A stretch of DNA of 64,000 bases from a virus (taxonomy: Duplodnaviria > Heunggongvirae > Uroviricota > Caudoviricetes), in IMG/VR virus record IMGVR_UViG_2609460332_000008. The stretch is one strand, 5' to 3'. The position numbers and the translations under genes are program-made. Every line of letters begins with the position of its first letter. The stretch's first letter is position 1. Shown here piece by piece: positions 1-40,520 of the stretch. The notes beneath the pieces are model-generated. The model did not search any database, was not told the DNA's origin, and worked only from the letters and a program-made list of their open reading frames with translations.

Positions 1-206
1 TTTATGCTCTTAACCAGGCAGAAGGAGTCGAGTTTGGGACTGTAACGGAAAAAGACGGTGTCTATAGCGCGACAGTAACTTCAAAACGAGCTGGTAAGAT
101 TACTATCGGTGTTAAATCTGATAGTCATGATTTCTCAGGTGTTAAGAAAGAAATCACCTTTATTGAGGACCGGCAGCAGGTTACATTCTCTCAGTTTGAA
201 GCCAGC
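1..206 (+). pseudogene. Host Ig-like-repeat adhesin gene (invasin/intimin-like), upstream segment, interrupted by the Mu-like prophage; gene start lies outside the window
   Basis: Open frame runs to position 206 and resumes in the same frame at 33777 once the prophage and one TSD copy are removed; the TGA at 207-209 is created by the Mu end. Confidence 0.75.
202..206. repeat. 5-bp target-site duplication CCAGC, copy at the Mu right end
   Basis: CCAGC immediately outside the Mu-type terminus TGAAGCGGCGCACGAAAAACGCGAAA; identical pentamer at 33777..33781. Confidence 0.85.
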
Positions 207-320
207 TGAAGCGGCGCACGAAAAACGCGAAAACGTTTCACGATAAATGCGAAAAATTTAATTTTCGCGCTTCAAACGAAACAGCGGCATTAACCGCTGT
301 TTTTTTATTCATTAAGTGGG
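207..320. promoter_or_regulatory. Mu right end (attR) with R1-type transposase-binding sequence
   Basis: Begins TGAAGCGGCGCACGAAAAACGCGAAAACGTTTCACGATAAATGCGAAAA, matching the Mu R1 sequence as I recall it. Confidence 0.8.
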
Positions 321-321
321 A

Positions 322-1059
322 TCACTTCGGGTAGGGCTGAATCCTGAATAGCTTAGTGTTTAGGCGCTTTTTTGCGCGCTTGTTCAGGAATCTGATGTAG
401 CGATACTGATTAAATTTGTGTACCACGGCCCGCTCCTTATTAGCCCGCAAATACTCGCCTCGTTGTCCTCCACGCTTAATCGCGTTCATCGTTATCTCGT
501 GATACCACTCGCCGTCCAGCTCGTAGAACGTGCTTTCATGGCTACCAATAAAATCAAAATTCGACGCCTGATACACAACGCCTGCGCGTCCGCAGCGTTC
601 GTCTGCAAAGGACTGAACCCACTCCACTGACGGATACAATAACCTGATGGTTTTTAGCGCATAGCTGATGGCCCGTGATTCAGAGTTGCGGGGCATGTCG
701 TCGTGTAGCCACATGCGGTTCAGTTCCATATAGCCCCGGTTATCCGTTTCCAGCACAACACGACGCCCTGAGTTGGGGTTAAGGGCATATCCCCACTGAA
801 GAACGCCAACCAGATCACGTCCGCTGAATACGCCAAGATGCAGGTAGGAGTTATTCACAAAACGGCGGGAATAGTGTTTTGTCTGAATGATTGTGCGGGC
901 CAGCCAGCAGGATATGGTTTCAACGCGCAGCTCCTTTGAACCATAGCCGACAATCCGGCCTTCATACTCAATAACGCAGGGTTTTGTCAGAATGCGTGAT
1001 TTCTTCTCTTTTCCCACAATACAGCTCCGTGGGATGCTCTTTGGCATTCGATATGACAA
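322..1059 (-). CDS. mom: Mom-like DNA modification protein; true start may be an internal GTG near 1017, giving 231 aa
   Basis: Last gene before the Mu right end, overlapping com upstream as in Mu; start position inferred. Confidence 0.7.
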
Positions 1060-1153
1060 TGTAACGTTTACAGCGAGGGCATTTAATTTCTATATGCTTA
1101 AAACCTCCTTTAAACAGTAATTTATTGCAGTTTTTACAGCGAACAGAGTCCAT
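968..1153 (-). CDS. com: Com, zinc-finger translational activator of mom
   Basis: Translation [33 protein letters not shown]... closely matches Mu Com including the CxxC...CxxC motif; AGGGGG Shine-Dalgarno before the ATG at 1153. Confidence 0.85.
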
Positions 1154-1226
1154 GATTCCCCCTGTGTAATAACCAGACATGACCGCCCGGAGGGCTGGGG
1201 GTATTTAATCACAACTGATGCAAACC

Positions 1227-1254
1227 GACGATCGATATGATGCTATCGATCGTC
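1227..1254. promoter_or_regulatory. Palindrome with two GATC sites upstream of com-mom; candidate Dam/OxyR-type control region
   Basis: GACGATCGATA-tgatgc-TATCGATCGTC, 11-bp perfect arms each carrying a GATC, about 75-100 bp upstream of the com start. Confidence 0.5.
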
Positions 1255-1317
1255 ATAAACTATACAAAATGATTATTTATAAGTACGCTCCACATCCACT
1301 TTTCATGCTGAATTGCT

Positions 1318-3135
1318 TCAGTACCGGATCATACCAACATCCATTTCAGGTGAATCCACTAACCAGAAATTTTCTGGTTTTAGCGTCAGGATTATCCAGG
1401 CTGTGTTTGTTGTTGATGGCCACGGAGGTAGCACATCATAGGTTGGATCATCACATGAATCTCTGTAACCAAACTTATTAAAAAGCGGGGCCATTGCAGC
1501 AATGAGATTCACTGCATTCAGCTCGTTACCCAGTTTGCGCTCAAACAGTGCCACGCCCGCCGTTCCTTCCACCCACACGCCGCGACTGTGACCACTGTAA
1601 CCGTAGTCAGGGTGATACGGTGTATAGCCTGTTGTTTCCCGCGTGCCAAATAAAAAACGCCCCATGTACTTACGACATCTTGCCGCTTTCCCGGTATCTA
1701 TATTGGCTATAAACAATCCACCCCAGGAAGACTGATCCAGTGCTGCCGCATTGTCATAGTGTGCCGGATGCACACCCTGACGGAATCGTCCCTCTTCTTC
1801 CACCCACATCCCCCTGATGATGCTTTGCGCCAGTTTTTCTGCACGTTTGGTGAAACCATCAAATCCGAGTCGCCCCATCAGTTCAAACAAAAACCAGATA
1901 TCAACGTTATGTTCCAGCGCGCACCATTCAGCAACAAAACTGGCGTCAAATTCGCCATTTACATAACGACCAAGACCACCTTTATATAAACCTTCTCTCA
2001 GGTCACCTTCTGTTGTCACAAGGAAAGAATCAAGCCAGACAATGCCGGATAACAACTTTTCCCGAACAATATTTACCTGCGCTCCGTCCGGATATTTCTC
2101 CAGATAAAAGGCCAAAGCATAATAAACCCATGCCGCATTCCCCAGGCGGTAATAGGTACGCGGTGACATGGCCGACAGCCTGTTAACAAAAAACTTTACT
2201 CCACCGTTTTCATCAACAAGCGCACACAAGCCCGCAACGTATCTTTCTACAGCCTCATGTCGCTGAACCATCAACGCCAGTGCTGCCAGCGCCTGGTCAT
2301 ACGTGTAACACCGATCTTTCATCACCCTGATCACTTCGGGGTCTGCGTCCTCCGGCATCCAGTAGCTACGAATGAGCAGTGGAAACTCCAGCGTTGTGAT
2401 CCACGCATTATCCTCAATCCGAATAAGACGAAACTGTTTTGCTCCCGTCCAGCAACGTCTGAAATAGAAAGTTCCGTCACTATTCAAATTAGCGTCGCCG
2501 TTAAAATACTCTCCGGTTGTATAAGCATACATTTCGACTTTATACTTTTCTGGTTCAGAAATATCGCAATATCCGTTAACTGCACCGACATAATTAAAAT
2601 CGATATTTTCTTTTATTTTTAAAGATATTGATGTATCAACAACCTCGGGTTGTTCCAGTTTCAGCATGGCTGTCGTACAACGGCTGAGTATGTCAGTAAA
2701 ATTTTCGTAACGCAGACCGGATATATTCCCGGCTATGTTTTGAATAGCTTCCAGAATCTTTACTGCTTGTTGGGATGATGATGCCGCCGTATCTGCATTT
2801 TCCTGCACCTTGTCTGCCAGTTCTTCGAATCTGCGCAAAGATTCTGGTCGTAAGTCAATTTCAGTTGCTCCCAGAAAATCATTAAGTGAACCATCGCGCG
2901 AATCCATATAGACCCGAATGACCCCGATTTCTGCAAGGCGCTGTGAACTGTGTGTCAGACGAACACTATATACTCCGGGCAGCACGGGGAAATCATATTC
3001 ACCGCTCAGAGTGGTTACGTGACTGTAAACACCTCTCAGGATCCCGGGTTGATTGTGTAGTGAGGTCAGGGTTATTGTTGCTCCGCTCAGCGGTTCTCCC
3101 ACAGGGGATGTAATTATACCTTTAAGCTGCGGCAT
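1318..3135 (-). CDS. Receptor-binding protein: Stf-like N-terminal tail-attachment domain fused to a large glycosidase-like (putative depolymerase) C-terminal domain
   Basis: N-terminal ~100 aa align with the lambda-type Stf at 61398 in this window (shared ...VY.DS..G.LNDFLGA...); the C-terminal ~450 aa are rich in Trp/Tyr/Asp, compatible with an alpha/alpha-toroid hydrolase (fold call inferred). Confidence 0.6.
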   Translation of the reverse strand: MPQLKGIITSPVGEPLSGATITLTSLHNQPGILRGVYSHVTTLSGEYDFPVLPGVYSVRLTHSSQRLAEIGVIRVYMDSRDGSLNDFLGATEIDLRPESLRRFEELADKVQENADTAASSSQQAVKILEAIQNIAGNISGLRYENFTDILSRCTTAMLKLEQPEVVDTSISLKIKENIDFNYVGAVNGYCDISEPEKYKVEMYAYTTGEYFNGDANLNSDGTFYFRRCWTGAKQFRLIRIEDNAWITTLEFPLLIRSYWMPEDADPEVIRVMKDRCYTYDQALAALALMVQRHEAVERYVAGLCALVDENGGVKFFVNRLSAMSPRTYYRLGNAAWVYYALAFYLEKYPDGAQVNIVREKLLSGIVWLDSFLVTTEGDLREGLYKGGLGRYVNGEFDASFVAEWCALEHNVDIWFLFELMGRLGFDGFTKRAEKLAQSIIRGMWVEEEGRFRQGVHPAHYDNAAALDQSSWGGLFIANIDTGKAARCRKYMGRFLFGTRETTGYTPYHPDYGYSGHSRGVWVEGTAGVALFERKLGNELNAVNLIAAMAPLFNKFGYRDSCDDPTYDVLPPWPSTTNTAWIILTLKPENFWLVDSPEMDVGMIRY

Positions 3136-3670
3136 CAGGATGCTCCGGCCAGTTGATGGCGTTATATGTGGCTTTATCTGTGATGGCGCTGAAATCCATT
3201 GCCCGCAGCGATTTCGCGTAAATGCGGTACGATTTCAGCTTCTCCCTCTCTTCGTCGCTGATTAATCCAAGCAGCAGGTCTTTTTCCCATTCACTGGTCA
3301 CGATGCTGACCTGTTTTAACAGTGCATCACGCTCATCTTCCGCTTTAAGTTTGTAGTCAAAAACAAATTCATCATTGCGGTAGAACCAGTAACCCGACGC
3401 ATCAATGCGACGATTGGCGGTAATATCCGGTAGCTCAATCACGCTTTTATTTTCCGGGCAGATTGAGGTGATGTCTTTTCCAACCCAGACCACTTCGCCA
3501 GTTTCAACATAAATAACTTTCAGAGTGTCTGGCTGAAATTTTTCCTGGGCTTCGTGCCATTCCTGACCATCATCGGAGAACAGCCACAATAAAAATTTAT
3601 GCTGTCGCGCCAGCTGGTATTGCTCAATTGTTTTAGGGTTTTGTGCCGTAAGATTTTTTAAGTGCATCAT
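3122..3670 (-). CDS. Tail fibre assembly protein (Tfa/Mu U family)
   Basis: MMHLKNLTAQNPKTIEQYQL... N-terminus typical of Tfa chaperones; immediately downstream of the tail fibre gene. Confidence 0.75.
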   Translation of the reverse strand: MMHLKNLTAQNPKTIEQYQLARQHKFLLWLFSDDGQEWHEAQEKFQPDTLKVIYVETGEVVWVGKDITSICPENKSVIELPDITANRRIDASGYWFYRNDEFVFDYKLKAEDERDALLKQVSIVTSEWEKDLLLGLISDEEREKLKSYRIYAKSLRAMDFSAITDKATYNAINWPEHPDAAA

Positions 3671-3672
3671 GA

Positions 3673-4434
3673 TTACAAACTCGCTACATTTCGCCAGACG
3701 CCATTAATCAGAACCTGCACCGGGCGTGCATTGGCCCAGTCCACACTTTCACCGCCATCAACACCACTCAGTAAATGACCTGATGGCGCATCTCCCCCAC
3801 GTCCAATACCAATGGCGCTGCCCAGACGTATATCCTGCACACCTGTAGCTGTGATGGTGATATCGCTGGTGCCATCAAACAGCACATTATTAATCCTGCG
3901 GGCCGTCTGAAGCCGGGTTGCCGTTCCGGCGTTGCCGCTGATGTTGCTGATGGTGATATCCGAAGACAGGGCCATGCCGTTGACCTTGCGGGTATTCGGT
4001 ACAGCACTGTTGGCTTTATTTACCGTGTCACGTAATGAAAGTACTTCGATAATTTCACCGGCTGTGTTTTTCCCGAGAATACCGCGCACAAAAGCACTGA
4101 GCGGTGTTAATGCCATTGTGTCTTCGCCGGTAAAATACGGGAACGTATTATTCTCACCGGTTAATCCGGCAATGGCACCGGCTGAACCACTGTTCGTAAT
4201 AAACAGTTTTTTCAGTGCCGTCATAATCTGGTCGGTGGTGTTTTTATCCGGTTTGATATTTGCCTGCCGGAGAATTTCCAGCAGTTCAGACTGAATAATA
4301 TTAAACCAGTCCGGCCCCGGATAAGTGGGCGGAATACCGTTCCCGCCTTCGGTGAAATAAAGCGTTGTTTTGCTTAATTCAGCCGCGACAGGTGGCATTA
4401 CCGGTACACCCGTCGGATTATCCACATGAAACAT
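3673..4434 (-). CDS. Tail fibre protein with P2 H-like C-terminal domain
   Basis: ...NTFPYFTGEDTMALTPLSAFVRGILGKN... and C-terminal ...LINGVWRNVASL resemble the P2 H / Mu S conserved regions. Confidence 0.75.
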   Translation of the reverse strand: MFHVDNPTGVPVMPPVAAELSKTTLYFTEGGNGIPPTYPGPDWFNIIQSELLEILRQANIKPDKNTTDQIMTALKKLFITNSGSAGAIAGLTGENNTFPYFTGEDTMALTPLSAFVRGILGKNTAGEIIEVLSLRDTVNKANSAVPNTRKVNGMALSSDITISNISGNAGTATRLQTARRINNVLFDGTSDITITATGVQDIRLGSAIGIGRGGDAPSGHLLSGVDGGESVDWANARPVQVLINGVWRNVASL

Positions 4435-4437
4435 AAA

Positions 4438-5022
4438 TTATTCTCCGGTGTAATAATATTCATATTCCGTGCCCGCCAGCCGGTAATGCTTCAGCAGGCA
4501 TTCCAGCTCGCGGGTGCGTTCGCTGATTAATGGCGTCATAACGTCATCAATACAGGTAAACCGTCCGGCATCTTTGTCCGGGACTTCAACTTTCAGCAGC
4601 CAGCGATACCGGGCCGGATGCAGCGGATACATACAGTCGCGCAGACAGTGGTGCGGCAGAACAGCCGTCACCTTTATGGTGAAGCCCAGCGCCGCCGCAG
4701 CGGCTTCAATCTGCCAGGTTGCCAGCCCGCCTTTGCGGCGGTATTTCTCCACCACGGCCCGGCGGCGGGCTTCCGTTGTGGTGGCGGCAATTCCGCATTC
4801 CGGCAGCGCCAGATATTGCTCCCACTCCGGCAGCAGCTGGAGCGTGGTTTCCGGGCGCATCTCCACATGCAGGCGCGAGGCGTCGTATTCAACGCGGGTT
4901 AAACGCTCTGCAAGCGCCCTTAAAAAACGGTTTAAATCCGCGTCGTTATCACGCGGCCATGCCTTACCCCGAGGCATGACCTGTTGCAGTGCGGTCAGCC
5001 ATTCCGTGACGCTGTGAGCCAT
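4438..5022 (-). CDS. Mu gp48-like baseplate/tail protein
   Basis: Position and size in the Mu-like baseplate cluster. Confidence 0.65.
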   Translation of the reverse strand: MAHSVTEWLTALQQVMPRGKAWPRDNDADLNRFLRALAERLTRVEYDASRLHVEMRPETTLQLLPEWEQYLALPECGIAATTTEARRRAVVEKYRRKGGLATWQIEAAAAALGFTIKVTAVLPHHCLRDCMYPLHPARYRWLLKVEVPDKDAGRFTCIDDVMTPLISERTRELECLLKHYRLAGTEYEYYYTGE

Positions 5023-6083
5023 GTAACCTCCCCGATGGTGATAAGTTCATCCACGTCACAGGTGGTGTCCTCCCCGATGTTGAGGAAGTAGTCTGTGATG
5101 CCGGACGTCATACCGATGGCCGTGCGCAGCGAGGACACCGGCAGCATCTGACCGGGGGTCAGCGTTTTCTGTAATGCGGTCAGGTTTGCCCGGACGGCGT
5201 TCCTGTTCACCTGGCTGTCCGGTGTCAGACGGATGGATAAATGAACTTTAATCAGTCTGACCTGTACCGGCCAGACCTCGATGCCGCCCGGTTTGCCCAC
5301 CATCACGCCGGTGGCCGGGTGTTTGTGGCAGAACAGATACTGCTCCATTGTCTTCAGGTCTTCGCGGGTCGGCACGATGTCTTCCCGGTCATCATAAAGC
5401 CATGCCAGCCCGACTGTGCCGGGGCCGTGCCACGCATCCCACGCCCACGCGCGGCTGACGCCCGGCACTTCACGCGCCCAGATGACGTAATCATGCAGTG
5501 CACCGCCCACCGGGGGATTGCGGCGCACATACAGCAGACGGTCCAGCAGCTCTGCGATGGATTCAATATCTGCGCCGCCGGTAATACCGCTATTCACCAC
5601 TGCACCGGTGCTGCCTGTTCCGGGCAACGGGGACAACAGGGTGAGCACGGCACCGGCAGCAAGATTGCCCGCCACACCGGCTTCTTCAGCCTGCACAATG
5701 ACGGTGACCTCGCCGTCATGTACCTCGCCGGATGTGAGCACCTGATACACCTGATTCGTGTCGGACTGCATCCGGGTTTCTGCCGGAATGGGGGACTGAC
5801 TGGTGAAGGTCACCGGCCCGCTGGCAAAGGTTGCCTGCTTGCGGATAACCCCTTCATACGTTGCTGTTTTGATAATGGTTTCATCATCAGATGCGGTGGA
5901 CGGGATTATCTGGTCCTTAATCCAGCTCTGATGGTCGTATAAATCCCGGACCTGACTGCTGAATGACACGTTCAGCGCCTGCTCAACACTGACAGGCGGC
6001 AGCTTTTGCAGACCGAGTTCATACGCAATATCTTTTTTGCCGTCGGCAATCAGTTTGCCCAGCGTGGGGATTTCATATGGCAT
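4995..6083 (-). CDS. Baseplate J-like protein (Mu gp47)
   Basis: 362 aa, position in the baseplate cluster. Confidence 0.7.
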   Translation of the reverse strand: MPYEIPTLGKLIADGKKDIAYELGLQKLPPVSVEQALNVSFSSQVRDLYDHQSWIKDQIIPSTASDDETIIKTATYEGVIRKQATFASGPVTFTSQSPIPAETRMQSDTNQVYQVLTSGEVHDGEVTVIVQAEEAGVAGNLAAGAVLTLLSPLPGTGSTGAVVNSGITGGADIESIAELLDRLLYVRRNPPVGGALHDYVIWAREVPGVSRAWAWDAWHGPGTVGLAWLYDDREDIVPTREDLKTMEQYLFCHKHPATGVMVGKPGGIEVWPVQVRLIKVHLSIRLTPDSQVNRNAVRANLTALQKTLTPGQMLPVSSLRTAIGMTSGITDYFLNIGEDTTCDVDELITIGEVTWLTASRNG

Positions 6084-6525
6084 TAATGGTGGCCTCCCAT
6101 CGGCGGGTGATTTCGATTGTGAGCGTGGTTTTGTCCGGGCGGGTTAACACCACCTGAAAGGCAATACGGTCAGGGACAATGATTCTGGCCGTGACGGCGG
6201 CATTACGGGCGTAACCGGCCCGCAGCAGCGGTTGCATGGACAGCCGCGCGTAATCTTCCACGCGCAGGCGGACATCTTCCGTCAGCTTTTCACGCTCAAG
6301 CAGCCACAGGCGGGAACCCCACGAAAAATCGCTGTACGTGTCGCCCGGCCAGCCGCGCGGGTCGCCGGAGCCGTCAGGAATGACATCATCGTCATCAGCA
6401 CGGGCATCGGTGAAAAGGCAGATAAGAACCTGAGTGACCAGCCCCTCATCCAGCGAGAGGCCGTTATGGGTGACGGTGATGTCACCCCGTGAGAGCATGT
6501 TATTCCAGTGGATTCCTGTCGTCAT
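6073..6525 (-). CDS. Mu gp46-like baseplate protein
   Basis: Synteny between gp45 and gp47 homologues. Confidence 0.65.
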   Translation of the reverse strand: MTTGIHWNNMLSRGDITVTHNGLSLDEGLVTQVLICLFTDARADDDDVIPDGSGDPRGWPGDTYSDFSWGSRLWLLEREKLTEDVRLRVEDYARLSMQPLLRAGYARNAAVTARIIVPDRIAFQVVLTRPDKTTLTIEITRRWEATINAI

Positions 6526-7058
6526 ACGGGCGGTGATGTATTCTCATTGTCGCCGTCCTTATGAATGTGTTCGATGAATGATTTACCGTTGATTCTGACA
6601 TCTTCAGTAAATTCACAGGGACCGACGAATTTCATTTGTTTACCGATAATATTCAGCAATTCGTCGGCGGTGAGATTTACCGTTTTCCCTGAAACGTTTA
6701 ATTGTTCTCCTGTGATTTCAATGACGCCGTTTTCCTTCAGGGTGATGTGTGATTTGCCGTCCCGGTGATAAAGCCGGACATCGCCGGGGGACAGTCCTTT
6801 CGGGCGACATCGCTTGTCCTCCACCGCAATGGCAACCAGCCCGTCACGCCGCCCGCCAACGGCCAGTACAATGGCTTCAGAACCTTCCGGCGGAACGGAA
6901 GTAAACCCGTAGTTCTGGAAGCGTTCCACGTCGTCATCGGTGGCATCTGCCAGCGTCTGAATCTGAAGGTTCTGCCGCTCCAGACTGTCAGACACCATGC
7001 GGACAATGGCACGGTCAACCATCAGCCGCAGACGGCGAGCAATGGCGTTTAATCCCAT
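6522..7058 (-). CDS. Baseplate assembly protein V-like (Mu gp45)
   Basis: Size and synteny. Confidence 0.65.
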   Translation of the reverse strand: MGLNAIARRLRLMVDRAIVRMVSDSLERQNLQIQTLADATDDDVERFQNYGFTSVPPEGSEAIVLAVGGRRDGLVAIAVEDKRCRPKGLSPGDVRLYHRDGKSHITLKENGVIEITGEQLNVSGKTVNLTADELLNIIGKQMKFVGPCEFTEDVRINGKSFIEHIHKDGDNENTSPPV

Positions 7059-8122
7059 GTTGCCACCGCCTTTGCTGATTTCTTCGTCTTCGCTTTCATT
7101 TCCGGCATATCCAGTGATTCAGGCGGAACCAGCGCCAGAACCGTCATCCTCCCCTGTGCGCCATCCGTCCAGGTCACCCCGGATATCAGCCAGGTGGTTT
7201 TCAGGTTCTGAATGCTGTCGTCGATATCGACAAGGCGGTTGGTCTGCCACAGCGGGCCGCTGTCGCCCTGTTCGCGCCAGCCTGCCACCGTGATTTCCGT
7301 CGTGCGGGATTCCCCCAGCATCCGGGCTTTGTACCATTCTCCGCGAATGCTGGCACCGCCCACGGTCAGACTGTCTTCATTGACCAGAATGCGCGGGCGG
7401 TAACGGTTAATTTCCAGGTCTTCGGTGATGTACTGGCGACCGCCCACCATCGAGGCAGGCTGGCTGTCCCACAGTTTGCCACCGGCACTGGTGGTGCCCT
7501 TGATGATGTACTGGCTGTTACGCTCCCGCCAGCTGAAGCGCCCACGGGCGGCGAGGATATTTTTTCCCAGCACCAGTGACACACCCGCGCGAACGGAAGA
7601 GGCGCGGGTGATAATCAGGTTACCTGCGCCGTCAGACGTCAGCAGAACGCCGCGCTGTTTTGCCAGCCGGTCGAGCAGTTCAAAACCCGTTTCACCCTGT
7701 TCCAGAACGACAGACGCAAACGCCTCCCCGGTCGGGGTTTCCGTAATGACGGTTATCCCGAACGGGCAGCAGACATCAGCCGCCACCTGTTCAATCCGCA
7801 CGCCTTTCCATTTCCCGGACGAATGCACCACAGAGCAGTCAACCAGGTCACCGGTTTTGTCGCGTCCCATGACGCGAATCTCCACGTTATCTGCGTCATA
7901 GCTGGGGATAAAATCATCGATATACCCCGTCAGCACGGTATCCGCGCCCAGCCTGACCGTGCAGGGTTGCCCCTCACGAATCACGCGCGGTGCCGCCGCC
8001 GACCAGCGGGTTGTCACACTGAGATCAAACTCACCGGCAATCGCCTTCAGGGAACGGCTGATGGACATTTCCGTCCAGCCTTCCCACAGTTTGCCGTCAA
8101 CGGTAAGAATCACGGATTCCAT
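7049..8122 (-). CDS. Baseplate hub / late control D-like protein (Mu gp44)
   Basis: 357 aa, downstream of the DNA circularisation gene. Confidence 0.65.
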   Translation of the reverse strand: MESVILTVDGKLWEGWTEMSISRSLKAIAGEFDLSVTTRWSAAAPRVIREGQPCTVRLGADTVLTGYIDDFIPSYDADNVEIRVMGRDKTGDLVDCSVVHSSGKWKGVRIEQVAADVCCPFGITVITETPTGEAFASVVLEQGETGFELLDRLAKQRGVLLTSDGAGNLIITRASSVRAGVSLVLGKNILAARGRFSWRERNSQYIIKGTTSAGGKLWDSQPASMVGGRQYITEDLEINRYRPRILVNEDSLTVGGASIRGEWYKARMLGESRTTEITVAGWREQGDSGPLWQTNRLVDIDDSIQNLKTTWLISGVTWTDGAQGRMTVLALVPPESLDMPEMKAKTKKSAKAVATWD

Positions 8123-22675: not shown

Positions 22676-22677
22676 GC

Positions 22678-24717: not shown

Positions 24718-24718
24718 A

Positions 24719-25315
24719 TCACCCCCGCGTGGCGGACATGATGCCCAGAGGGGTATCGATGATTTCCAGACAGGCGTCGGTCAGTTTTTCCATGCGGTTA
24801 AACCAGCCGTTCAGGTATTTACCCTGGGCGGGTTTTGACTTGATGATGTCGGCATAAAAGCGGGAACGACGGACAATGCAGCGGGCCAGCAACCAGTCCG
24901 GGGTGAACAGACTCACGGCCTTACGGGTACGTGGGCCGATGATGCCGTCAGCATCCACATCAGCGGCTTCCTGCAAAATTTTGATGGCTTTTTTAACGCC
25001 ATGCTGAACCGCTGCATCGAACACAAACATCGCCACGCCATCAGGCCACTGGTCACATCCGGCAGGCAGCCAGTAATCGCGCCAGTAAATCTGCGCGACC
25101 TGTTCGCGGGTTAAATCCTTAATGCGGGTATCCGGTTTGCCGTCGCCGTTGACATCGGTTTTGCCGTCAATCACACCGTCGCGGCGGTCAGAAATGCCGT
25201 ATTTGGTTTCGCCGCCACGGTCAGTGGGGTCATTGACATAGACGCCTTCGATATCGGGACGCAGAATGAAATTCAGCGCATGCTCAAAGGCCGGGGAGAA
25301 TTTTTGATTTTCCAT
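24719..25315 (-). CDS. Endolysin, GH108-type muramidase with peptidoglycan-binding domain
   Basis: ...DPTDRGGETKYGIS... N-terminal motif typical of GH108 followed by a PG-binding-like region. Confidence 0.7.
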   Translation of the reverse strand: MENQKFSPAFEHALNFILRPDIEGVYVNDPTDRGGETKYGISDRRDGVIDGKTDVNGDGKPDTRIKDLTREQVAQIYWRDYWLPAGCDQWPDGVAMFVFDAAVQHGVKKAIKILQEAADVDADGIIGPRTRKAVSLFTPDWLLARCIVRRSRFYADIIKSKPAQGKYLNGWFNRMEKLTDACLEIIDTPLGIMSATRG

Positions 25316-25370
25316 AAAAGCACCTGTGAAGCAGATTTAAACGTGGTCTGCTTCATGGTGCCGGAGGCAT

Positions 25371-25396
25371 AAAAAAAGCCGGATTTACCGGCTTCA
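25371..25396 (-). promoter_or_regulatory. Dyad element, copy 2, about 60 bp upstream of the endolysin gene and just after mor
   Basis: Identical to 17636..17661; minus strand reads AAGCCGGTAAATCCGGCTTTTTTT. Confidence 0.6.
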
Positions 25397-25400
25397 TTGA

Positions 25401-25850
25401 TTAAGGGCGTCGTGGCGGACGACGAACGGGGTGAGGCAGGTTCGGGGAGGGGTAAAACAAATCCGGCTGGTATTTATTGCGCTCCAGACGTCGCATCCGT
25501 TTGATGGCCTTGTAGACGGTTTTATACGTCACCCCGTAACGCTGAACCAGTTCAGGAATATTATGGCCGTTAAAATCACGCCAGATACGCATATCCCGGA
25601 CAAGATTCTCCAGAATATTCCCCCTCGGAACATAAACCTGCATCCCGCCGATATGGCGACAAATCGCCACAACCAGCTCAAGGGAATGGGCAGGGTCTGC
25701 ACCAATCCGGGCCAGTTCTTTACGCAGCAGTGCGTTCAGTTCAGAAAGTAACGCCGGATAAGCGGTGTTTTCCTGGTAATCATGAAGATATTCCAGAACG
25801 CTGTCGTCCCGAAGGTCTTCGAATAAATCCTGCTCTTTCATCTGTTTCAT
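25401..25850 (-). CDS. mor: Mor/C-family transcription activator
   Basis: Matches the Mor/C family as I recall it (DLFEDLRDD..., ...GVTYKTVYKAIKRMRRL... HTH); sits directly after gemA. Confidence 0.8.
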   Translation of the reverse strand: MKQMKEQDLFEDLRDDSVLEYLHDYQENTAYPALLSELNALLRKELARIGADPAHSLELVVAICRHIGGMQVYVPRGNILENLVRDMRIWRDFNGHNIPELVQRYGVTYKTVYKAIKRMRRLERNKYQPDLFYPSPNLPHPVRRPPRRP

Positions 25851-26398
25851 ACAGCAATTCTCCCGCTGTTTCGTGCGCGGGCATACGCACTGGTCAGTGC
25901 ATCATAGCCGCGCAGCTCCCGCCCGGTTTCGCTCACAGGTAAAGGCACACCATGTCGGGCAAAGGCTTCCCGGATGCAGCGCATATGCCACTGTTTGAGC
26001 GTTTCGAGCACAATCTGCAACGATTCCCCGTGACACCATGCCAGCGTGGAAACACCCTGACCGCCATTACGTCTGGCCGTCAGGCGTTCAACGTATTTGT
26101 CCAGCGCGGCGTCGCTGATATCGGAAACGAAACCATCAAGGAACATCTGCTGCCAGATTTTGTAAATCTTCTCGCGCGGTGTGACATGCCCCTTAAAGCG
26201 ACGGCGGGGATGTTTTTTCTGCTTCTTAAAACCGCGCTCTTTCATGGCATCGAGCACCTGTTCCAGTTGTGCGACAGTCAGCTCGCGGCAACTGGTCTTG
26301 CCTGTGCACTGCACCAGAAAGGCGCGGTAAGTGTCATCGTCGAGTTGTAGATCACGACGGGCGACATGAATTAATTTAATCAGGGATGTGCGATTCAT
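25847..26398 (-). CDS. gemA: GemA-like protein (Mu gp16)
   Basis: GGAGG RBS before the ATG at 26398; position before mor. Confidence 0.65.
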   Translation of the reverse strand: MNRTSLIKLIHVARRDLQLDDDTYRAFLVQCTGKTSCRELTVAQLEQVLDAMKERGFKKQKKHPRRRFKGHVTPREKIYKIWQQMFLDGFVSDISDAALDKYVERLTARRNGGQGVSTLAWCHGESLQIVLETLKQWHMRCIREAFARHGVPLPVSETGRELRGYDALTSAYARARNSGRIAV

Positions 26399-26471
26399 TA
26401 TCGTACCTCCAGAAAAGGGGGCGGTGCGGCAACACCGCCAGAATCCACTCACTAAACAGAGGAAGCTTTTT

Positions 26472-26738
26472 ATGAAAAACAGTGAACAACCTTATGATGT
26501 TGCAGGGTATACCATTGCCTCAAGGTTGCTGATACTCCTTGTCAGAAAGGGGCTGATTACCGCAGAGGAAGGAAAAACAATCCTCAAATCCGCTGCAGTC
26601 GTAGCTGCAGAGGCTCCGGTATTGAGAACAACGAATGATTCCGCCCTGCAAATATCGCAGCTAATCACTGAAACCATCAGTTTGTTAGACCAAGATCCTG
26701 ATGAATATCAAAAGCCTCAGCCATCTGAGCATCCGTAA
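26472..26738 (+). CDS. Hypothetical 88-aa protein on the opposite strand to the surrounding operon; AT-rich
   Basis: GAGGA RBS 9 nt before the ATG; rare codons; 3' end overlaps the convergent gene 26677..26991 by ~60 bp. Confidence 0.45.
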   Translation: MKNSEQPYDVAGYTIASRLLILLVRKGLITAEEGKTILKSAAVVAAEAPVLRTTNDSALQISQLITETISLLDQDPDEYQKPQPSEHP

Positions 26739-26991
26739 GAATATCTTTATTTGATAGCCCCAGCCTGCGACGAATGTATTCCTCGCGGGCTGCTTCATTT
26801 TGTAGCGCCACGGCAGCTTCCACCTGGTTCATTTCACGGTTAATAATGCTCCGGACTTCTCTGGCGGTGAGGTCATGCTCAATACCATATTTAACGATAT
26901 CGTGCATACGTTCCAGCATCTTTAAATTAGCCATGACGCCATCAATATCAACTGGTGTGAATTTCATTTCTTTATTCTCTGGTTTATTCAT
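26677..26991 (-). CDS. Hypothetical 104-aa helical protein, AT-rich accessory gene
   Basis: GAGG RBS before the ATG at 26991. Confidence 0.5.
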   Translation of the reverse strand: MNKPENKEMKFTPVDIDGVMANLKMLERMHDIVKYGIEHDLTAREVRSIINREMNQVEAAVALQNEAAREEYIRRRLGLSNKDILTDAQMAEAFDIHQDLGLTN

Positions 26992-27166
26992 TTCGTAATA
27001 CCTCTTCGCAATAAAAGATTTCACTGGGATAACGTTTTTGTATGCGCTCCATCACCTGCATACATGCCTGTTCTGTGGGCCAGATTTTTTCCGTTACCGG
27101 AATGGCATCGCAGGCATCATTCCCACAGGTGCCAACCAGCAGGACAAAGCCAATTGACTTAATCAT
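26984..27166 (-). CDS. Small Cys-containing protein with hydrophobic N-terminus
   Basis: 60 aa, four Cys; start overlaps the upstream stop (ATGATTAA). Confidence 0.45.
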   Translation of the reverse strand: MIKSIGFVLLVGTCGNDACDAIPVTEKIWPTEQACMQVMERIQKRYPSEIFYCEEVLRNE

Positions 27167-27698
27167 GCTCGCTGATTTCCTGTGTTTCCGCCGGAACCGG
27201 TGAATAATCAAGAATGAGATAGCGCAGGACGTGGTCGGTGATATTCCAGCCACTGGAACCACAAATAAAGCGCCCCAGCCGGATATCGATATACGCCATC
27301 ACAAAACGGGGCATCCCCTGTTTGCACATCTCGTCATCCACTTCAGCAACGATGTAAACCGACTCGCAGGTCAGTACGCCTGTCGCAAATTCTTTTGCCA
27401 GTGCCGGAATTGCATTGCCTTCCAGCCAGGGCAAAGAGCGGCGGAACGCACACCATTGAGCATCATCAACAGCGGGGTGCTCCGTTGCGTTTCGTCTTAC
27501 AGGAGGCGTCGGACGAGGGCGCGGAACATCATAAAATCCGTTGCATTCTGTCAGCATTCCGGCATCAACCGCATCACGCAGGAAATACACCATTGACGAG
27601 GGAGGCATCTTCATTTTTTCAGCCAGAACGCCACAGGTCAGACGCCCGTAAGCCCGTAATAATGTGCTGACACCGTTCAGAACTTTTGCATCAACCAT
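27159..27698 (-). CDS. Hypothetical protein with helix-turn-helix-like N-terminus and Pro-rich linker
   Basis: AAGGA RBS; 179 aa; preceded by a 98-bp AT-rich gap after gam. Confidence 0.55.
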   Translation of the reverse strand: MVDAKVLNGVSTLLRAYGRLTCGVLAEKMKMPPSSMVYFLRDAVDAGMLTECNGFYDVPRPRPTPPVRRNATEHPAVDDAQWCAFRRSLPWLEGNAIPALAKEFATGVLTCESVYIVAEVDDEMCKQGMPRFVMAYIDIRLGRFICGSSGWNITDHVLRYLILDYSPVPAETQEISEHD

Positions 27699-27796
27699 TT
27701 TTTATTCCTTAGTAGTTTGTTTCAGGCGCGAGCAATCCCCTGACGCATCGCGCCATAATTAAAAGAAAGTGAATTAATTAAATATTCGTGGTGGTA

Positions 27797-28321
27797 TTAA
27801 ATACCGGCTTCCTGTTCAAACGGAATAATAGAAAAATCTTCAATGCCCGATTTAACTGTAATTCCGGCAACACCTGCGACCGCTTTCGGTTCCAGTAAAA
27901 TCGCTTCCTTGTTGATTTCCTGTTTCGTGCGAATAAAACGTTGCAGGCCAAGACGCTCCAGCGTTTCCATCACCGCATCCACACCGCGAATACTTACCGA
28001 TGGCGGGCGCTGACGCCATGACACATCGCCGGTTACCAGGTTTGCCGTCTTCACCTTGCCACCGTTCGTCAGTTCGTCGCGGTTCGCTTCACACCATCCC
28101 TGAACGCCTTTTGAAAGGGTTTCAATACTGGTTTTAAGTGGCGCAATCTGTGAGGCGTATTTCTCCGTAATATCAGCGATAGCGTCATTCATTTCCGTTT
28201 CAAGTCGTGCTGCTTCGCGTTGCAGGTCCCCAATCCGGCGGATATCACATACCACGGCATCGCGGGATTGCGGAACATAAGCCGCTGCGGCGTTCTTGAT
28301 TCGTTTTGCTGGTTTAGCCAT
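27797..28321 (-). CDS. gam: Gam, host-nuclease inhibitor (Ku-like DNA end binding)
   Basis: Near-identical to Mu Gam as recalled (MAKPAKRIK...VKTANLVTGDVSWR...FIRTKQEINKEAILLEPKAVAGVAGITVKSGIEDFSIIPFEQEAGI). Confidence 0.9.
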   Translation of the reverse strand: MAKPAKRIKNAAAAYVPQSRDAVVCDIRRIGDLQREAARLETEMNDAIADITEKYASQIAPLKTSIETLSKGVQGWCEANRDELTNGGKVKTANLVTGDVSWRQRPPSVSIRGVDAVMETLERLGLQRFIRTKQEINKEAILLEPKAVAGVAGITVKSGIEDFSIIPFEQEAGI

Positions 28322-28341
28322 ATAAATAAAGCTCCTGTTAA

Positions 28342-28632
28342 TTAATATTCACTGTATACAATGCTGGATACAGCACGATTGCTTAATTCCATCTTTTGGG
28401 CTATCACATGAATAGCTAGCCCTTCTTTATAAAGTTCACGACACAAATATTTGTCGTGCTCACTGATTCGGTAAACACACAACGATATTCCGTGCCTTCT
28501 GGCATGTGCCCGGAGAGCGGTTGTGGCAACTTTCAGTTTTTTCGCCATTTCTTCGACGGTCATTTTTCCGACATTGGCTTCGATAAATTCCCGGTCTTCG
28601 CGTGACCATCTTTTGCGAGGGATTATCATCAT
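28342..28632 (-). CDS. Small early protein with two HTH-like segments
   Basis: 96-aa ORF between B and gam. Confidence 0.5.
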   Translation of the reverse strand: MMIIPRKRWSREDREFIEANVGKMTVEEMAKKLKVATTALRAHARRHGISLCVYRISEHDKYLCRELYKEGLAIHVIAQKMELSNRAVSSIVYSEY

Positions 28633-28643
28633 GCCTCCTGCAA

Positions 28644-28913
28644 TTAATGTTTAGCTGCATCCGGGTTATACCGGAATAACTCGCCTTCGGCTTCCAGCCC
28701 AAGTTCTCTGGCTGACTTCAACAACTCCTGGGTTGCTTTTTCAATAATTTCAGGAGCCATGCTCTTGATAATGCCTGCCATCACGTCATGCGGTCCGATT
28801 TGCTCCTTAGGAGACTGTTCTTCCAGTTGCACACTCATTCCTACAAAGAAACCTCCTTTTTTCTGAAACTCAACATCTTCCATGCGGTTAAATTCAAAGA
28901 TTACTTTTTCCAT
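28644..28913 (-). CDS. Small early protein
   Basis: AAGGAG RBS before the internal ATG (MEKVIFEF...). Confidence 0.5.
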   Translation of the reverse strand: MEKVIFEFNRMEDVEFQKKGGFFVGMSVQLEEQSPKEQIGPHDVMAGIIKSMAPEIIEKATQELLKSARELGLEAEGELFRYNPDAAKH

Positions 28914-28954
28914 TTTGTTTCTCCTTTCAAATATCATTTGTCATATAGCAGGAT

Positions 28955-29236
28955 TTATTTACGTCTTACGCCTGCCTTACGTGGACGTGTAACCCTGAAT
29001 CTGACATCACGACAAAACTTAATTAATGCCTTTTGTGCCAGTCGCTGATTTGGCGCTTCCGGGATACCCGGAACCAGCAATTGCACCGGAGCTGTTCGGG
29101 AATGTCGCGCGAGTACTTCAATTGCATCTTTTACCGCTTTTTCTTCGCCGCTGATGACTGGTAAGGCACCATCAGGAACCTTATCGCCAAACTCAATCAG
29201 GCCACTGGCCCAGACATAAGCCGTAATTTTTTTCAT
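28955..29236 (-). CDS. Small early protein
   Basis: GGAG RBS; 93 aa. Confidence 0.5.
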   Translation of the reverse strand: MKKITAYVWASGLIEFGDKVPDGALPVISGEEKAVKDAIEVLARHSRTAPVQLLVPGIPEAPNQRLAQKALIKFCRDVRFRVTRPRKAGVRRK

Positions 29237-29239
29237 CTT

Positions 29240-29466
29240 TCATCTCCAGATAATCTGACAACCATTAAGGCGGGCCGTCCATACTGAACGGGCAACCCCT
29301 GATTTATGCTCCATAATTCTGATGGCGTTCCTGACCAGCTCCGGTGGCGGGCAGGTAATTTCAAGCACCGGGCGGGCTACGCCCAGCCAAGATTCGTTGA
29401 CGTGGCTGCCGCGCTCCTGTAACCAGGTCTTTACTTCCGTCGCCATTTTGATATTCCGTGACATCA
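29240..29466 (-). CDS. Small early protein following B
   Basis: AGGAGA RBS overlapping the B stop; tandem ATG ATG start. Confidence 0.5.
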
Positions 29467-29480
29467 TGATTTCGCTCTCC

Positions 29481-30419
29481 TTACGTGCGCAGCAGGGTTG
29501 AAATATCAACGTCCAGGTCTAATTCACGGAAAGCCTGACGCAGATAATCTTCATTAACACGTTCACCTTTGCCGTGGGCAGTCATGGCCGCAAGGCGCAG
29601 CGAGTGGTTCAGGATGCGAAGCGCACCTGGTTTTTGTGCAATCTGCTGTAATAATTCCCGCTCGTTTTCGCCGGTAATTTGCCAGGCATCCGCAATGGCT
29701 TTTACATCGTCAATTTTTGTTTTATTAATTGCCGTCCGCTTTGCAATACGGGAAAACAGGCGGGCAAATTCAACTGTTCTGTTACCACCGGTCATGTTTG
29801 AATAAACACGGTGATTCCCCATCAGAACAAGGCCAATACGGGCGGATTCCTGCAACAGGCGGAGTTCTTCCAGAACTTCAGCGCCAAGATGATCAGCTTC
29901 GTCGATAATGACCAGCCCCTGCGTACCTTCAAGGCGGCGTCGCAAAGCGCGGGAGAGCGGCCCTTTGCGGCGCGGTGCGTCATTCATTCCCAGTTCATAA
30001 GCCAGTTCAGTGAGACATTCCAGAACACTGGCGCAGGATGGGGTAATGGTGATCATCCAAACATTGTTATTGGTGCGACGAAATTCGCGGGCTGCTTCAG
30101 TTTTTCCCACACCTGGATTACCGCAGATAACAGAAATACTTTCAGTCAGACTGGCAAAACGCATACTCGTCCAGATTTGGCGTGCTGTTCTGGTTTCCAC
30201 AAAACGCGGTGGTTCTGGCAGCTCTGCGGCACGGTGATAGTTCTCCAGCCAGCGTTCCAGCGTCTGCGCAACACGTTCATTGTCGCCGTTGTACTTGTTA
30301 TTCACGAATGCGCTTAACGTTCCTGCGGCCACGCCGGACTCGCGGGCAATTTGTGCATAAGTGGCTTTTTCACTTTCTACAAGCGTGCGCAGTCCTGCGC
30401 GAATATCGGAAATATTCAT
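29481..30419 (-). CDS. B: MuB, ATP-dependent target-DNA activator
   Basis: 312 aa with Walker A GNPGVGKT; immediately after the transposase gene. Confidence 0.9.
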
Positions 30420-30456
30420 CTGAATAACCTCGTAATTAAATTTGTTTAAACGTTAA

Positions 30457-32448
30457 TTAAATGGCTTTTTTACGTCTGTTCTGTTCCAGAATATCCAGTG
30501 AATGATTCAGATATTCATCACGATCAGTTTCATATTCATCATCGGGGTCCTGGTATTTCACCTGCACCGTGTTACCGGAAGGCCGGAAAATACCAACAAC
30601 CCTTGATTCTGGCGCTGCTGGTTCGGCTATCTGCGGCAGCAGTTCAGCAACTTCCAGCGCGTCCATTTGCTTCTGCGCCTTAATGGCTGCTTTAGTTGCA
30701 GATTTCAGTTGCTTCTGGCGGCGGCGATATTCACGGCCTGCCGCAGCATCATTAAACGCAACAGGTGCCAGACATTCCGCTTCACATATAAACCGACCCT
30801 CCAGGGTGTAGCAATAAACTGTGCTGTGTAGCTGCTGCGGATCAAACCTGACCACAACTTTTTTCACTCCGGCATTCATTAACGCCATGTTGTAATAAAC
30901 GTTTTTCGCGCCTTTAAGGGAGCCGCCAACTTTAAGCGTAAACTCGCCTTTGCGTGAAACGTTCACCGCTTCGGCAGGCAGTAACAGCATCCGTTTTTGT
31001 TCTTCGGTTGGCTTACGCACAATCGTTCTGACGTATTCACGCTCGAAAACATCATCAAACGAGAGTTTGCCCCCGCACATTTCTGTTTCACGGCCTGTTC
31101 TGGCATTGAACATCGCAACACCTTCAGCAAGGGTTTTCAGAAACAGCTCTGCATCAACAGCACGGTCGCCATAGTTATCAGGTTTTGCCTGCGGATTTGG
31201 CCCCGTATATGCGCCAGCCAGTGCCGGATGCTTATCAACGTATTCCTCAAGCCCACCAACACCGAAAGCACGTTCAACAGGTTTTGCCTGGCCCCAGCCT
31301 TTACCGGCAACAACGCTTGTCCAGTGCATTTTTGCGCCCATCAGTAAAAACAGCCCCTTTGGATCGTCCTCTTTTACCTTAAAGCGGTAACGATTGGGCG
31401 CGCCCCCCGTCAGCCATTTATTCGCTGCACCACGGGTGTTATCAATGGTGATGTGAAAATCCTCCGGGATACCGTAGCGAGTCACAACATCCATGAACGA
31501 GAGGCGAATTGAATCAATGTTCTCGCTCACATCGCAGCGCCAGCCCAGGATTTTTCGGGTTTTCACATCCTGCCAGAACCATGTTTTCGGGCGGATCACA
31601 TCACCGTTAAACCAGCGTACAAAGACGTTATGCAGATAACCGTCGCCGTTGATCCACTGCATGGCGTCCAGGTGTTCCACAGTTCGCTGCTGTGCAGGTA
31701 TCAGATGCATCAGTGCATGTTCACCTTCACGGCAGGCAACAACCATTGCCTCGTCCAGTTGCTGAATCCGGCGAAAGGCCGTGGCACGGGAGGGAATATT
31801 CCAGCCATGCTCACGTGCTGCCAGTTCCAGACGCTCATAACATTTGCGAAAGGCGGGTTTTTCCGGTCGCAGATAATCTGCAATCAGAAACTGCCAGGCA
31901 TCCTCGTCAAATTCACTTTTGTGAACGTTGCGACGGGATGCACCACGTCCATCAACAAGCGCAGCCGCCCAGTCAGGCTTCGCAAACTTCTGTACCTGGT
32001 AATATTTGTCTCGCAAAGTGGATGCGCTGACCTGGTAATGTCCTGCAACGGTCGCAAATGCCGTTTTCGTTGAAATCCCCTGGTTCAGCATTTCGTCTGC
32101 AGCCTGAACCGCAGGCAACCATTTTTCAGCAAGTTTGCGCTGGGAATCGCTGGCGTTATCCCATTTGCTCCACAGTGCCTCACGATCATAATCATGGGCT
32201 TCCAGCGTGGGGCGGGCGATTTCAAAACGGCCCTGGCTTGTTTCAATCTCTCCTTGTCTAAGCAATAACGCCGCTTTCGCTTCAACAGGTAAAGAGTTAG
32301 CATTGTATTCAATTGCTTTACCTCCTTTGACACCTGCTCTAGTGCGGTTTTGCCATCCTTGCTTCTTAGCGACATAAATCACACCAGCTGATGTTTTCGG
32401 CAAGCCAGGAAGATTTGCACACTCTTTCGGTGACACCCAAAGTTCCAT
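30457..32448 (-). CDS. A: MuA DDE transposase
   Basis: 663 aa from the ATG at 32448 (AGGTGA RBS), the length I recall for MuA; follows ner. Confidence 0.9.
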
Positions 32449-32449
32449 A

Positions 32450-32677
32450 TTATTCACCTGCTTGATATCGGCTAGGCCAGATGACTTCCGGTTTAGTTTC
32501 AAGGGCGTTAGCAATAATCTGTTCGCCCTTTGGCCAGTGCCGTTCTAGCGCATTAGCTAATGTTGTTGGCGCATAACCAAACTGCCGAGAAAGAGCTGAT
32601 AAAGAGAGCTTTCTTTTCTTAAGTCCCGCAATCACATCAGCACGATGCCAATCACGGACCTTTTCGTTGGAACACAT
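32450..32677 (-). CDS. ner: Ner, DNA-binding negative regulator of early transcription
   Basis: 75 aa with the Ner HTH region; directly upstream of A. Confidence 0.85.
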
Positions 32678-32845
32678 TTAAAAACCCTCCTAAGTTTTGT
32701 AATCTATAAAGTTAGCAATTTAACTAAGTGCAAAAACTTAGTTTACTTGCCAAAAAGATAAATACTGAAAAGTCTTTTGTAAAGTGACTTTTTAGTATTG
32801 TTGATCATGTTTTGTGTATTATGTTGAAAAATAAGGGTTTAAATT
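32678..32845. promoter_or_regulatory. Operator/early promoter region between ner and c
   Basis: 168-bp AT-rich divergent intergenic region with repeated CTGAAAAGT-like motifs. Confidence 0.65.
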
Positions 32846-33436
32846 TTGAAAAGTAACTTTATAGAATCTGGTGATACTGAAAAGTCAATCTGGTGTACGC
32901 CGCAAGAAATTATGGCTGCTGATGGTATGCCTGGATCTGTTGCAGGTGTTCACTATCGGGCAAATGTTCAAGGCTGGACAAAGCGAAAAAAGGAAGGTGT
33001 GAAGGGGGGTAAAGCAGTTGAATACGATGTGATGTCTATGCCCACCAAAGAACGAGAGCAAGTTATTGCACACCTAGGTCTGTCTATTCCTGGCACTGCT
33101 GCTCAAGCTAATGAGCAGCAGGATTCTTCGGAGCTGATAAACAAATTAACCACAACCTTAATCAATATGATTGAAGAACTGGAACCAGATGAAGCACGTA
33201 AGGCACTGAAACTATTAAGCAAAGGTGGGCTACTGGCGTTAATGCCACTTGTATTTAATGAACAGAAACTTTACAGCTTTATAGGATTTTCACAGCAAAG
33301 TATCCAGACGTTGATGATGCTAGATGCATTACCTGAAGAAAAACGCAAAGAGATTTTGTCAAAGTATGGGATTAATGAACAGGAGAGTCTTGTAGCTCCT
33401 TTGCAGGATCCACAAGATGTAAAAAAAGCCGTATAA
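32846..33436 (+). CDS. c: Mu-type repressor c
   Basis: 196 aa, divergent from ner/A/B as in Mu. Confidence 0.85.
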   Translation: MKSNFIESGDTEKSIWCTPQEIMAADGMPGSVAGVHYRANVQGWTKRKKEGVKGGKAVEYDVMSMPTKEREQVIAHLGLSIPGTAAQANEQQDSSELINKLTTTLINMIEELEPDEARKALKLLSKGGLLALMPLVFNEQKLYSFIGFSQQSIQTLMMLDALPEEKRKEILSKYGINEQESLVAPLQDPQDVKKAV

Positions 33437-33599
33437 CAACCAGGAATCTAGCTAAAACACGCACTTTCCCTCAAGTAACCTAGAGGGTAAGATACTGAAA
33501 CAACAAAACCTGTTTTTGATATACGTCATTCGCCAGAAGCCTGGTTGTTATCGGGTTTGAAGCGTTTTTGAAGCTGCAATTGAAATAATGCGTGAAGCA

Positions 33600-33776
33600 A
33601 TTGCTTTTCGTATGTTTAATGAAACAAAAGCCATTTCTAACAATCTTTCGCGTTTCAATGCTTAACGGCTAAAATTTGCTCTACAGGCTTGCAAGCCCCA
33701 CCAAATCTAATCCCGTCAAATCCCGAATAATCCAATATCCTCCCGGTTTTTTTCGTACTTCTCGTGAATCAATACA
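33600..33776. promoter_or_regulatory. Mu left end (attL) with L1-type transposase-binding sequence
   Basis: Reverse complement reads TGTATTGATTCACGAGAAGTACGAAAAAAACCGGGAGGATATTGGATTATTCGGGATTTGACGGG..., ~93% identical to the Mu left end as recalled. Confidence 0.8.
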
Positions 33777-33781
33777 CCAGC
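33777..33781. repeat. 5-bp target-site duplication CCAGC, copy at the Mu left end
   Basis: Identical to 202..206. Confidence 0.85.
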
Positions 33782-35333: not shown

Positions 35334-35360
35334 TGGGGAGGGCTTAGCCCTCCCTCTTTT
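35334..35360. terminator. Bidirectional rho-independent terminator between convergent adhesin and esterase genes
   Basis: GGGAGGGC-tta-GCCCTCCC followed by TCTTTTT on the plus strand and a T-rich run on the minus strand. Confidence 0.7.
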
Positions 35361-40489: not shown

Positions 40490-40520
40490 AGCTGCCCATA
40501 TCGATGGGCAACTCATGCAA

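Follow-up and report, generated by a model that had tools for sequence, protein, structure and literature searches.

The 64,000-nucleotide stretch of viral DNA analyzed here (IMG/VR record IMGVR_UViG_2609460332_000008, hereafter the window) contains a Mu-like element of 33,570 bp at positions 207..33776, and it is very probable that this element is a complete Mu-family phage which integrated by MuA/MuB-type DDE transposition into an adhesin gene carried as cargo by a lambdoid prophage at icd, and that this insertion is recent and strain-specific. The termini could be read from the letters of the window: the element begins with TG at 207-208 and ends with CA at 33775-33776, it lies on the minus strand, and its orientation is inverted as compared to the standard Mu map, with the mom end at 207 and the repressor end at 33776. 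It is flanked by two perfect copies of CCAGC, at 202-206 and at 33777-33781, of which the genomes with an empty site hold one. In the proposed mechanism both phage ends would have been joined to staggered cuts 5 bp apart, the repair of which would have generated the CCAGC duplication.

When positions 1..206 are joined to 33782 onward, a single open frame is obtained (...VTFSQFEAS|QNNALADGKQRN...) that runs to a stop at 35323. The reconstructed empty site of 395 nucleotides aligned at full length across the junction with 100% identity in all 25 complete Escherichia coli genomes listed, and 503 records matched this query at 99% or more. A match of five nucleotides has a chance of about 1/1024; the insertion is confirmed independently of this figure, because the empty site is intact in other genomes. 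An earlier note on this DNA, made from the letters alone, had described the Mu-type ends, the duplication and the restored reading frame, all of which are found exactly as it read them. Its view of the insertion as recent was likewise borne out: the flanks of the window show no mismatch to E. coli strain 4/1-1 across 206 + 12,189 nucleotides (12.4 kb), with a lone gap of one nucleotide in a further 8,524 nucleotides of the right flank, and none of the 5,426 complete E. coli genomes contained the occupied junction. A junction search of metagenome contigs gave 0 matches, and the occupied junction was seen in one draft assembly, GCA_000529615.1 (2083/2083 identical). The perfect duplication, the flanks equal to those of empty-site strains, the intact prophage reading frames and the absence of the junction from the complete genomes and the metagenome contigs together point to a recent and strain-specific hop.

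Relatives of the element occupy many unrelated sites and are flanked by different 5-bp duplications. The prophage of E. coli KFu019 (CP091700) is 99.2% identical over 24.8 kb, has identical ends and lies between ltnD and ygbI, flanked on both sides by ATGGT; in ETEC1734 a relative interrupts flhA between two copies of ATAGC; other copies adjoin kefC, fic, an opp gene and a permease gene. At least 80% of the late region was found in about 45-51 of the complete genomes, and the terminase-portal segment with an identity of 90% or more in about 47. By these comparisons the element is a member of an unnamed, already sequenced E. coli lineage of the Mu family, to which the prophages of KFu019, SA53-3, STEC388, ETEC1734 and STEC1575 belong as well, at other sites, with other duplications, with variable fibre modules and in some cases with frameshifts. 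The element has what characterizes the Mu family: a MuA-type DDE transposase with an adjacent MuB, TG...CA ends, a 5-bp duplication and integration at multiple unrelated sites without att specificity. All of its open reading frames have the same length and order as in the KFu019 copy, and for this reason the element looks intact.

The interrupted gene (4,266 nucleotides) encodes an inverse autotransporter of 1,421 amino acids, composed of an IAT beta-barrel (PF11924, residues 57-334, E = 5.6e-101) and a passenger with Big_1 and Invasin_D3 immunoglobulin-like (Ig-like) repeats (5 and 7 stretches, Pfam), i.e., the N-terminal barrel and tandem Ig-like domains of the type Ve architecture. This is in agreement with the earlier designation of the target as an adhesin with Ig-like repeats. 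The upstream piece at 1..206 (plus strand) comprises nucleotides 2519-2724 of the gene, codons 840-908, the gene start lying upstream of the window, and exactly matches the gene for WP_022645049.1 of strain 4/1-1; the downstream piece at 33782..35323 (plus strand), assigned by the match to 4/1-1 and by Pfam, comprises codons 909-1421 with the stop and encodes the distal Ig-like domains. The point of insertion, exactly between codons 908 and 909, is about six residues past the start of an Ig-like domain (near residue 902). The insertion had been described as in-frame, which is a misnomer, because the phage end supplies an immediate TGA (AGC|TGA), at which the N-terminal product stops. The adhesin would thus have been ended after residue 908 and its distal 513 residues split off. 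The claim that the protein is cleanly inactivated stands for the loss of these distal residues and goes too far otherwise, since the cell could still produce a protein of 908 amino acids that retains the signal sequence, the barrel and about six Ig-like domains. An open frame that starts within the phage end (GTG 33764; ATG 33818) runs through the 3' remnant of the adhesin gene to 35323. As the repressor gene c reads toward this remnant, it might be transcribed in lysogens; any product would be expected to be devoid of an export signal.

The adhesin, present in roughly 9% of the complete E. coli genomes, scored below the NCBIfam cutoffs for IatC, intimin, SinH, Ilp, YrIlm, Inv and YchO. Its size differs from that of IatA-D and YeeJ, and its locus differs from those of all six E. 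coli proteins (PMC6714894). FdeC (1,415 amino acids) is close in size and is set apart by its locus, the sequences not having been compared directly. An identity as SinH/IatB was rejected, as SinH has 725 amino acids and the NCBIfam SinH score is far below the cutoff. Independently broken copies of the gene were seen in other public assemblies (L008, L009, L010 and L011): in L008 (2990-3000) a deletion of one nucleotide lies in codon 918 and the ATG start of the fragment is codon 921, and in L011 (2860-2960) an insertion sequence (IS) element ends about 14 nucleotides upstream of the Mu site, in addition to an IS66. This suggests that the gene is often lost, although the look-up was biased toward breaks near the Mu site and gives no evidence of a hotspot. 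A weaker possibility is that the adhesin could be under recurrent selection for loss, given the IS insertions and frameshifts in other strains.

The surroundings of the adhesin gene had been missed in the earlier note, which recognized the adhesin as the target and not as the cargo of a lambdoid prophage. In strain 4/1-1 the adhesin gene lies between the replication genes O/P and an alpha/beta hydrolase gene followed by the nin/Q region; adhesin and hydrolase are cargo of a lambdoid prophage of about 48 kb integrated at icd. In the same strain this island carries iss and sitABCD; it ends about 48 kb further on, where a duplicated fragment of icd comes just after sitABCD. In the window the hydrolase gene is found at 35360-36403 (minus strand; Pfam and gene order in 4/1-1) and iss at 40521-40814 (minus strand; gene order in 4/1-1), and the rest of the lambdoid prophage (35360..64000), i.e., the nin region, Q, lysis, terminase, head, tail, J and fibre genes, follows the order of the icd-adjacent prophage of 4/1-1. 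Since the adhesin gene, the hydrolase gene and the nin/Q region are all part of the lambdoid prophage at icd, the window from 35.3 to 64 kb is, by gene order, the late half of the host prophage, so that one prophage is nested in another. An interpretation of 35360-36403 as the integrase gene of a second prophage was rejected: the product is the alpha/beta hydrolase, and the phage genes downstream belong to the same lambdoid prophage. Through the insertion the host prophage of about 48 kb has reached about 81.5 kb, a size which, by the packaging limit of lambda cos packaging, is probably too large to package.

No finding speaks against the insertion itself, but several observations narrow this account. 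The central base is A in two of the three duplications (CCAGC and ATAGC), which differs from the target preference of Mu, N-Y-(G/C)-R-N. The inducibility of the element and its competence for transposition are predicted from its genes, and more generally the transposition chemistry, present-day inducibility and the effects on the adhesin and the host prophage are what we infer from sequence. The loss of adhesin function is likewise presumed, since the truncated product would keep the barrel and about six Ig-like domains. The search for other carriers of the junction covered 24 of 153 index blocks, and the number of such assemblies is thus at least one. Finally, the host prophage may have been defective before the insertion: PGAP (the NCBI Prokaryotic Genome Annotation Pipeline) marks its fibre genes as partial in 4/1-1, and at about 56210 the window differs from 4/1-1 by a deletion of one base (AGCCGC to AGCGC) that leaves the homologue of minor tail protein L with 142 instead of 232 amino acids, which may be a real mutation or an error of the draft assembly.

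Among the alternatives, a prophage remnant that is immobile and domesticated, or an old insertion passed on by vertical inheritance, is improbable. Such a reading would agree with the fact that inducibility is deduced from the sequence and that some relatives carry damaged genes, as in ETEC1734 with its frameshifted sheath and tail-assembly genes. However, it does not account for a perfect duplication between flanks that equal those of empty-site strains over 12.4 kb, for open reading frames that are without exception intact and in the same order as in a 99.2%-identical copy at another site, or for a junction missing from 5,426 complete genomes while relatives are found at many sites.

A further alternative, that the element is Mu proper (genus Muvirus) from which the G segment and gin were deleted, is very unlikely. 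It would be suggested by the ends and by c, Ner, A, B and Mom, with protein identities to Mu of 90-99%, and by a length about 3.1 kb below that of Mu. By contrast, Mu DNA aligns with only 27% of the element, for an estimated whole-genome similarity of about 22%; the head and tail proteins all fall at 27-50% identity, the Mu lysis genes and C are missing, and the large terminase is nearer to those of Klebsiella, Shewanella and Vibrio phages than to that of Mu. That misassembly produced the junctions, by chimeric fusion of a Mu-like contig to the adhesin locus, can be dismissed as scarcely credible even though the only other record of the junction is a draft assembly that is possibly not independent of the window, because a misjoin would not yield a precise 5-bp duplication at the exact termini around a site that is contiguous elsewhere, and both junctions lie in unique sequence.

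In preference to a deleted Mu, the comparisons support a transposed phage of mixed ancestry. In blastn, Mu matched only the early region as far as mor (74-91% identity) and com-mom (89%), and the whole-genome similarity (about 0.22, calculated as 2 x identical bases divided by the summed genome lengths) falls short of the high similarity shared within Muvirus, the guideline of the International Committee on Taxonomy of Viruses for a genus being about 70% nucleotide similarity across the whole genome. The head and tail genes keep the gene order of Mu. The large terminase shares 68-71% of its amino acids with those of Klebsiella, Shewanella and Vibrio Mu-like phages as compared to about 50% with that of Mu, and the GC (guanine plus cytosine) content differs between the early (48%) and the late region (56%). 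Based on the 27% coverage by Mu DNA, the low identity of the late proteins, the relatives of the terminase and the difference in GC content, the element is a mosaic, as judged by alignment, in which ends, immunity, transposition, early genes and com-mom are of the Mu type and a different Mu-like lineage supplied the head, tail and lysis genes. The earlier note had called the element a relative of Mu and not Mu itself, which is correct but understates the distance: besides the G segment, C is absent as well and the whole head, tail and lysis part is foreign.

The ends of the element aligned with those of Mu, SfMu and D108 through conserved blocks which we take to be, from their positions in Mu, the L1-L3 and R1-R3 transposase-binding sites. 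The mom-side end (Mu attR, R1-R3 region; 207..290, plus strand) begins with TGAAGCGGCGCACGAAAAACGCGAAA and is identical to Mu and SfMu at 48 of 50 positions; the repressor-side end (Mu attL, L1-L3 region; 33600..33776, minus strand) ends in ...CAATACA and is identical at 94 of 100 positions to Mu, at 97 of 100 to SfMu and throughout (100%) to KFu019. The figure of about 93% given previously for the similarity of the ends to Mu is thus fair: at the repressor end the first 100 nucleotides are 94% identical, at the mom end the first 50 are 96% identical, and identity drops to 89-91% across the terminal 0.9-4.5 kb. SfMu, D108 and KFu019 were compared by means of alignments and annotation tables rather than by whole-genome blast.

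The gene content was analyzed by tblastn with every Mu protein against the element. Apart from the repressor gene, all genes described below lie on the minus strand. The repressor gene c (32846-33436, plus strand), which reads outward toward the adhesin remnant, encodes a protein with the Pfam Mu DNA-binding domain and 94% identity to its Mu counterpart; it is separated by an operator gap from ner (32450-32677; 99%), and both form the immunity region at 32450..33436. Because the repressor is only 29% identical to that of D108, the immunity is, by this comparison, of the Mu type. The MuA-type transposase (30457-32448; 98% over 663 amino acids), of which an identical product in another assembly contains the Pfam domains HTH_Tnp_Mu_1, HTH_Tnp_Mu_2, DDE_2 and Mu-transpos_C, is immediately followed by the MuB-type ATPase (29481-30419; 90% over 311 amino acids). 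The semi-essential early region at 25847..29467 contains, by Mu homology, genes for GemA (81%), gp14/gp15-like and gp11-like proteins, Gam (27797-28321; 92%), a gp9-like protein and a Kil-like protein (84%). No integrase-like reading frame was present within 207..33776, as judged by the genes that PGAP lists for the KFu019 copy (99.2% identical).

The sole activator of the Mor/C family, of 149 amino acids, is encoded at 25401..25850 (Pfam Mor, 3.6e-30; 63% identity to Mu Mor and 32% to Mu C). The region of small late reading frames and lysis genes at 22228..25315 (Pfam, PHROGs) comprises a GH108 endolysin gene directly after mor (24719-25315), a gene for a DksA/TraR zinc-finger protein (23261-23488), a DUF2730 gene and three reading frames of unknown function. 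The homologues of Mu head and tail proteins at 4438..22259 comprise a Gp27-like small terminase, the large terminase (20125-21660) and the portal (18557-20128), named by PGAP in KFu019, the minor head protein (17800-18564), protease (16624-17586) and major head protein (15722-16624), followed by connectors, sheath, tube, tape measure, DNA-circularisation protein and baseplate proteins, again in the order of Mu and as named by PGAP in KFu019. A fixed host-range module at 1318..4434 consists of a short S-like fibre gene (3673-4434), a gene for a U-like assembly protein (3122-3670) and a gene for a 605-amino-acid fibre with a lambda-Stf-type N-terminus (1318-3135). At the Mu map's right end lies, as in Muvirus, a com-mom DNA-modification operon (322..1153), in which com (968-1153; 73%) and mom (322-1017; 96%) overlap as in Mu and carry these names in the PGAP annotation of KFu019.

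The absence of the G segment, which had been noticed before, was confirmed: Mu Gin, endolysin (lys), gp23, G, gp35, gp37, gp38 and several small early Mu proteins had no match by tblastn, at the fibre end (207-6000) no segment lies between inverted repeats, and the fibre genes all lie on one strand, unlike the invertible G segment with Gin of Muvirus. Parts of the fibre module are 87-94% identical at the DNA level to fibre genes of the Shiga toxin (Stx) phages phiSTEC1575-Stx2k and phiP27. Among relatives of 95-99% identity the module differs: the 605-amino-acid fibre type (window 1318-3843) is replaced by a fibre of 1,037 amino acids and a DUF4376 protein in ETEC1734 (L006 12571-16274). The variation among close relatives and the sharing with lambdoid Stx phages suggest that host range is changed via module exchange rather than by G inversion.

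As compared to the closest known systems, the element (33.6 kb) shares with Mu (Muvirus mu; NC_000929; 36.7 kb) the TG...CA ends, the transposase-binding regions, the 5-bp duplication and the overall order of early, lysis, head, tail, fibre and com-mom genes, whereas it is without the G segment, Gin, C and the Mu endolysin and has the GH108 endolysin after mor and an additional lambda-Stf-type fibre. Shigella phage SfMu and coliphage D108 have the same end architecture and are both true members of Muvirus with a G segment and gin; D108 differs further in its repressor and its mom-side end. The host-specificity region is invertible in Sp18, a Mu-like prophage of E. coli O157:H7 Sakai (PMC2669165), which like the element has mom-type genes at its right end (PMC3299994). 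An assignment of the late module to the Sp18 type was rejected, as O157 genomes matched the terminase-portal DNA at 69% over 13% of the query. The nearest deposited phages for the late module are Klebsiella Kp4866-3, Shewanella MuM16-2 and Vibrio martha 12B12, which differ in host; in a 6-kb stretch of head genes Kp4866-3 matched in part (15% of the query), at about 73% identity of the DNA. No Mu-grade similarity to these Klebsiella, Shewanella and Vibrio phages turned up for c, A, B and mom, their early regions and ends not having been examined.

Taken together, the insertion is a clean natural example of Mu-type transposition, in which the ends are exact, 5 bp are duplicated and sister genomes have an empty site that matches perfectly, and one in which a prophage disrupts a cargo gene of another prophage. 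In the strain concerned it removed the distal part of a surface adhesin and probably rendered the host prophage, which carries iss and sitABCD, unpackageable. Moreover, it documents an E. coli lineage that pairs transposition, immunity and mom functions of Mu grade with a virion module not of Mu origin, that has neither Gin and the G segment nor C, and that exchanges fibre genes with lambdoid Stx phages. Public genomes already contain near-identical copies of the phage, and the current understanding of transposable phages is unchanged by the finding.

With regard to late regulation, Mu C matched only the mor reading frame in tblastn (32%), and scans with Pfam and PHROGs of the reading frames between mor and the terminase genes revealed no second protein of the Mor family; the three-tier cascade with separate Mor and C proteins that is typical of Muvirus was thus not found. 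We consider it possible, though doubtful, that the element is a working natural hybrid of Mu transposition, immunity and com-mom genes with foreign head, tail and lysis genes, in which the late genes including mom would be expressed from one Mor-family activator in a two-tier cascade without C. If true, regulatory and structural modules of Mu would be freely exchangeable in nature. A com-mom operon of Mu grade is retained alongside the single Mor/C-family activator (22228-25850), and the gap upstream of com (1154-1317) keeps a Mu-like GATC pair (CGATCGAT...ATCGATCG). Conservation of the Mu Pmom/C-binding region upstream of com was rejected, because the alignment score of 39.5 was not above that of shuffled sequences (30 ± 5) and only the GATC pair is shared. 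Similarly, a strong gyrase site like that of Mu was considered for the central gap at 17587-17799 and rejected: the position is analogous (48% as compared to 49% in Mu) and there is no convincing similarity in sequence. Downstream of mor (25316-25400) conservation of Mu Pm was rejected as well, only the terminator hairpin being clearly kept; this hairpin, AAGCCGGTAAATCCGGCTTTTT, follows mor as in Mu and is present a second time in the central gap.

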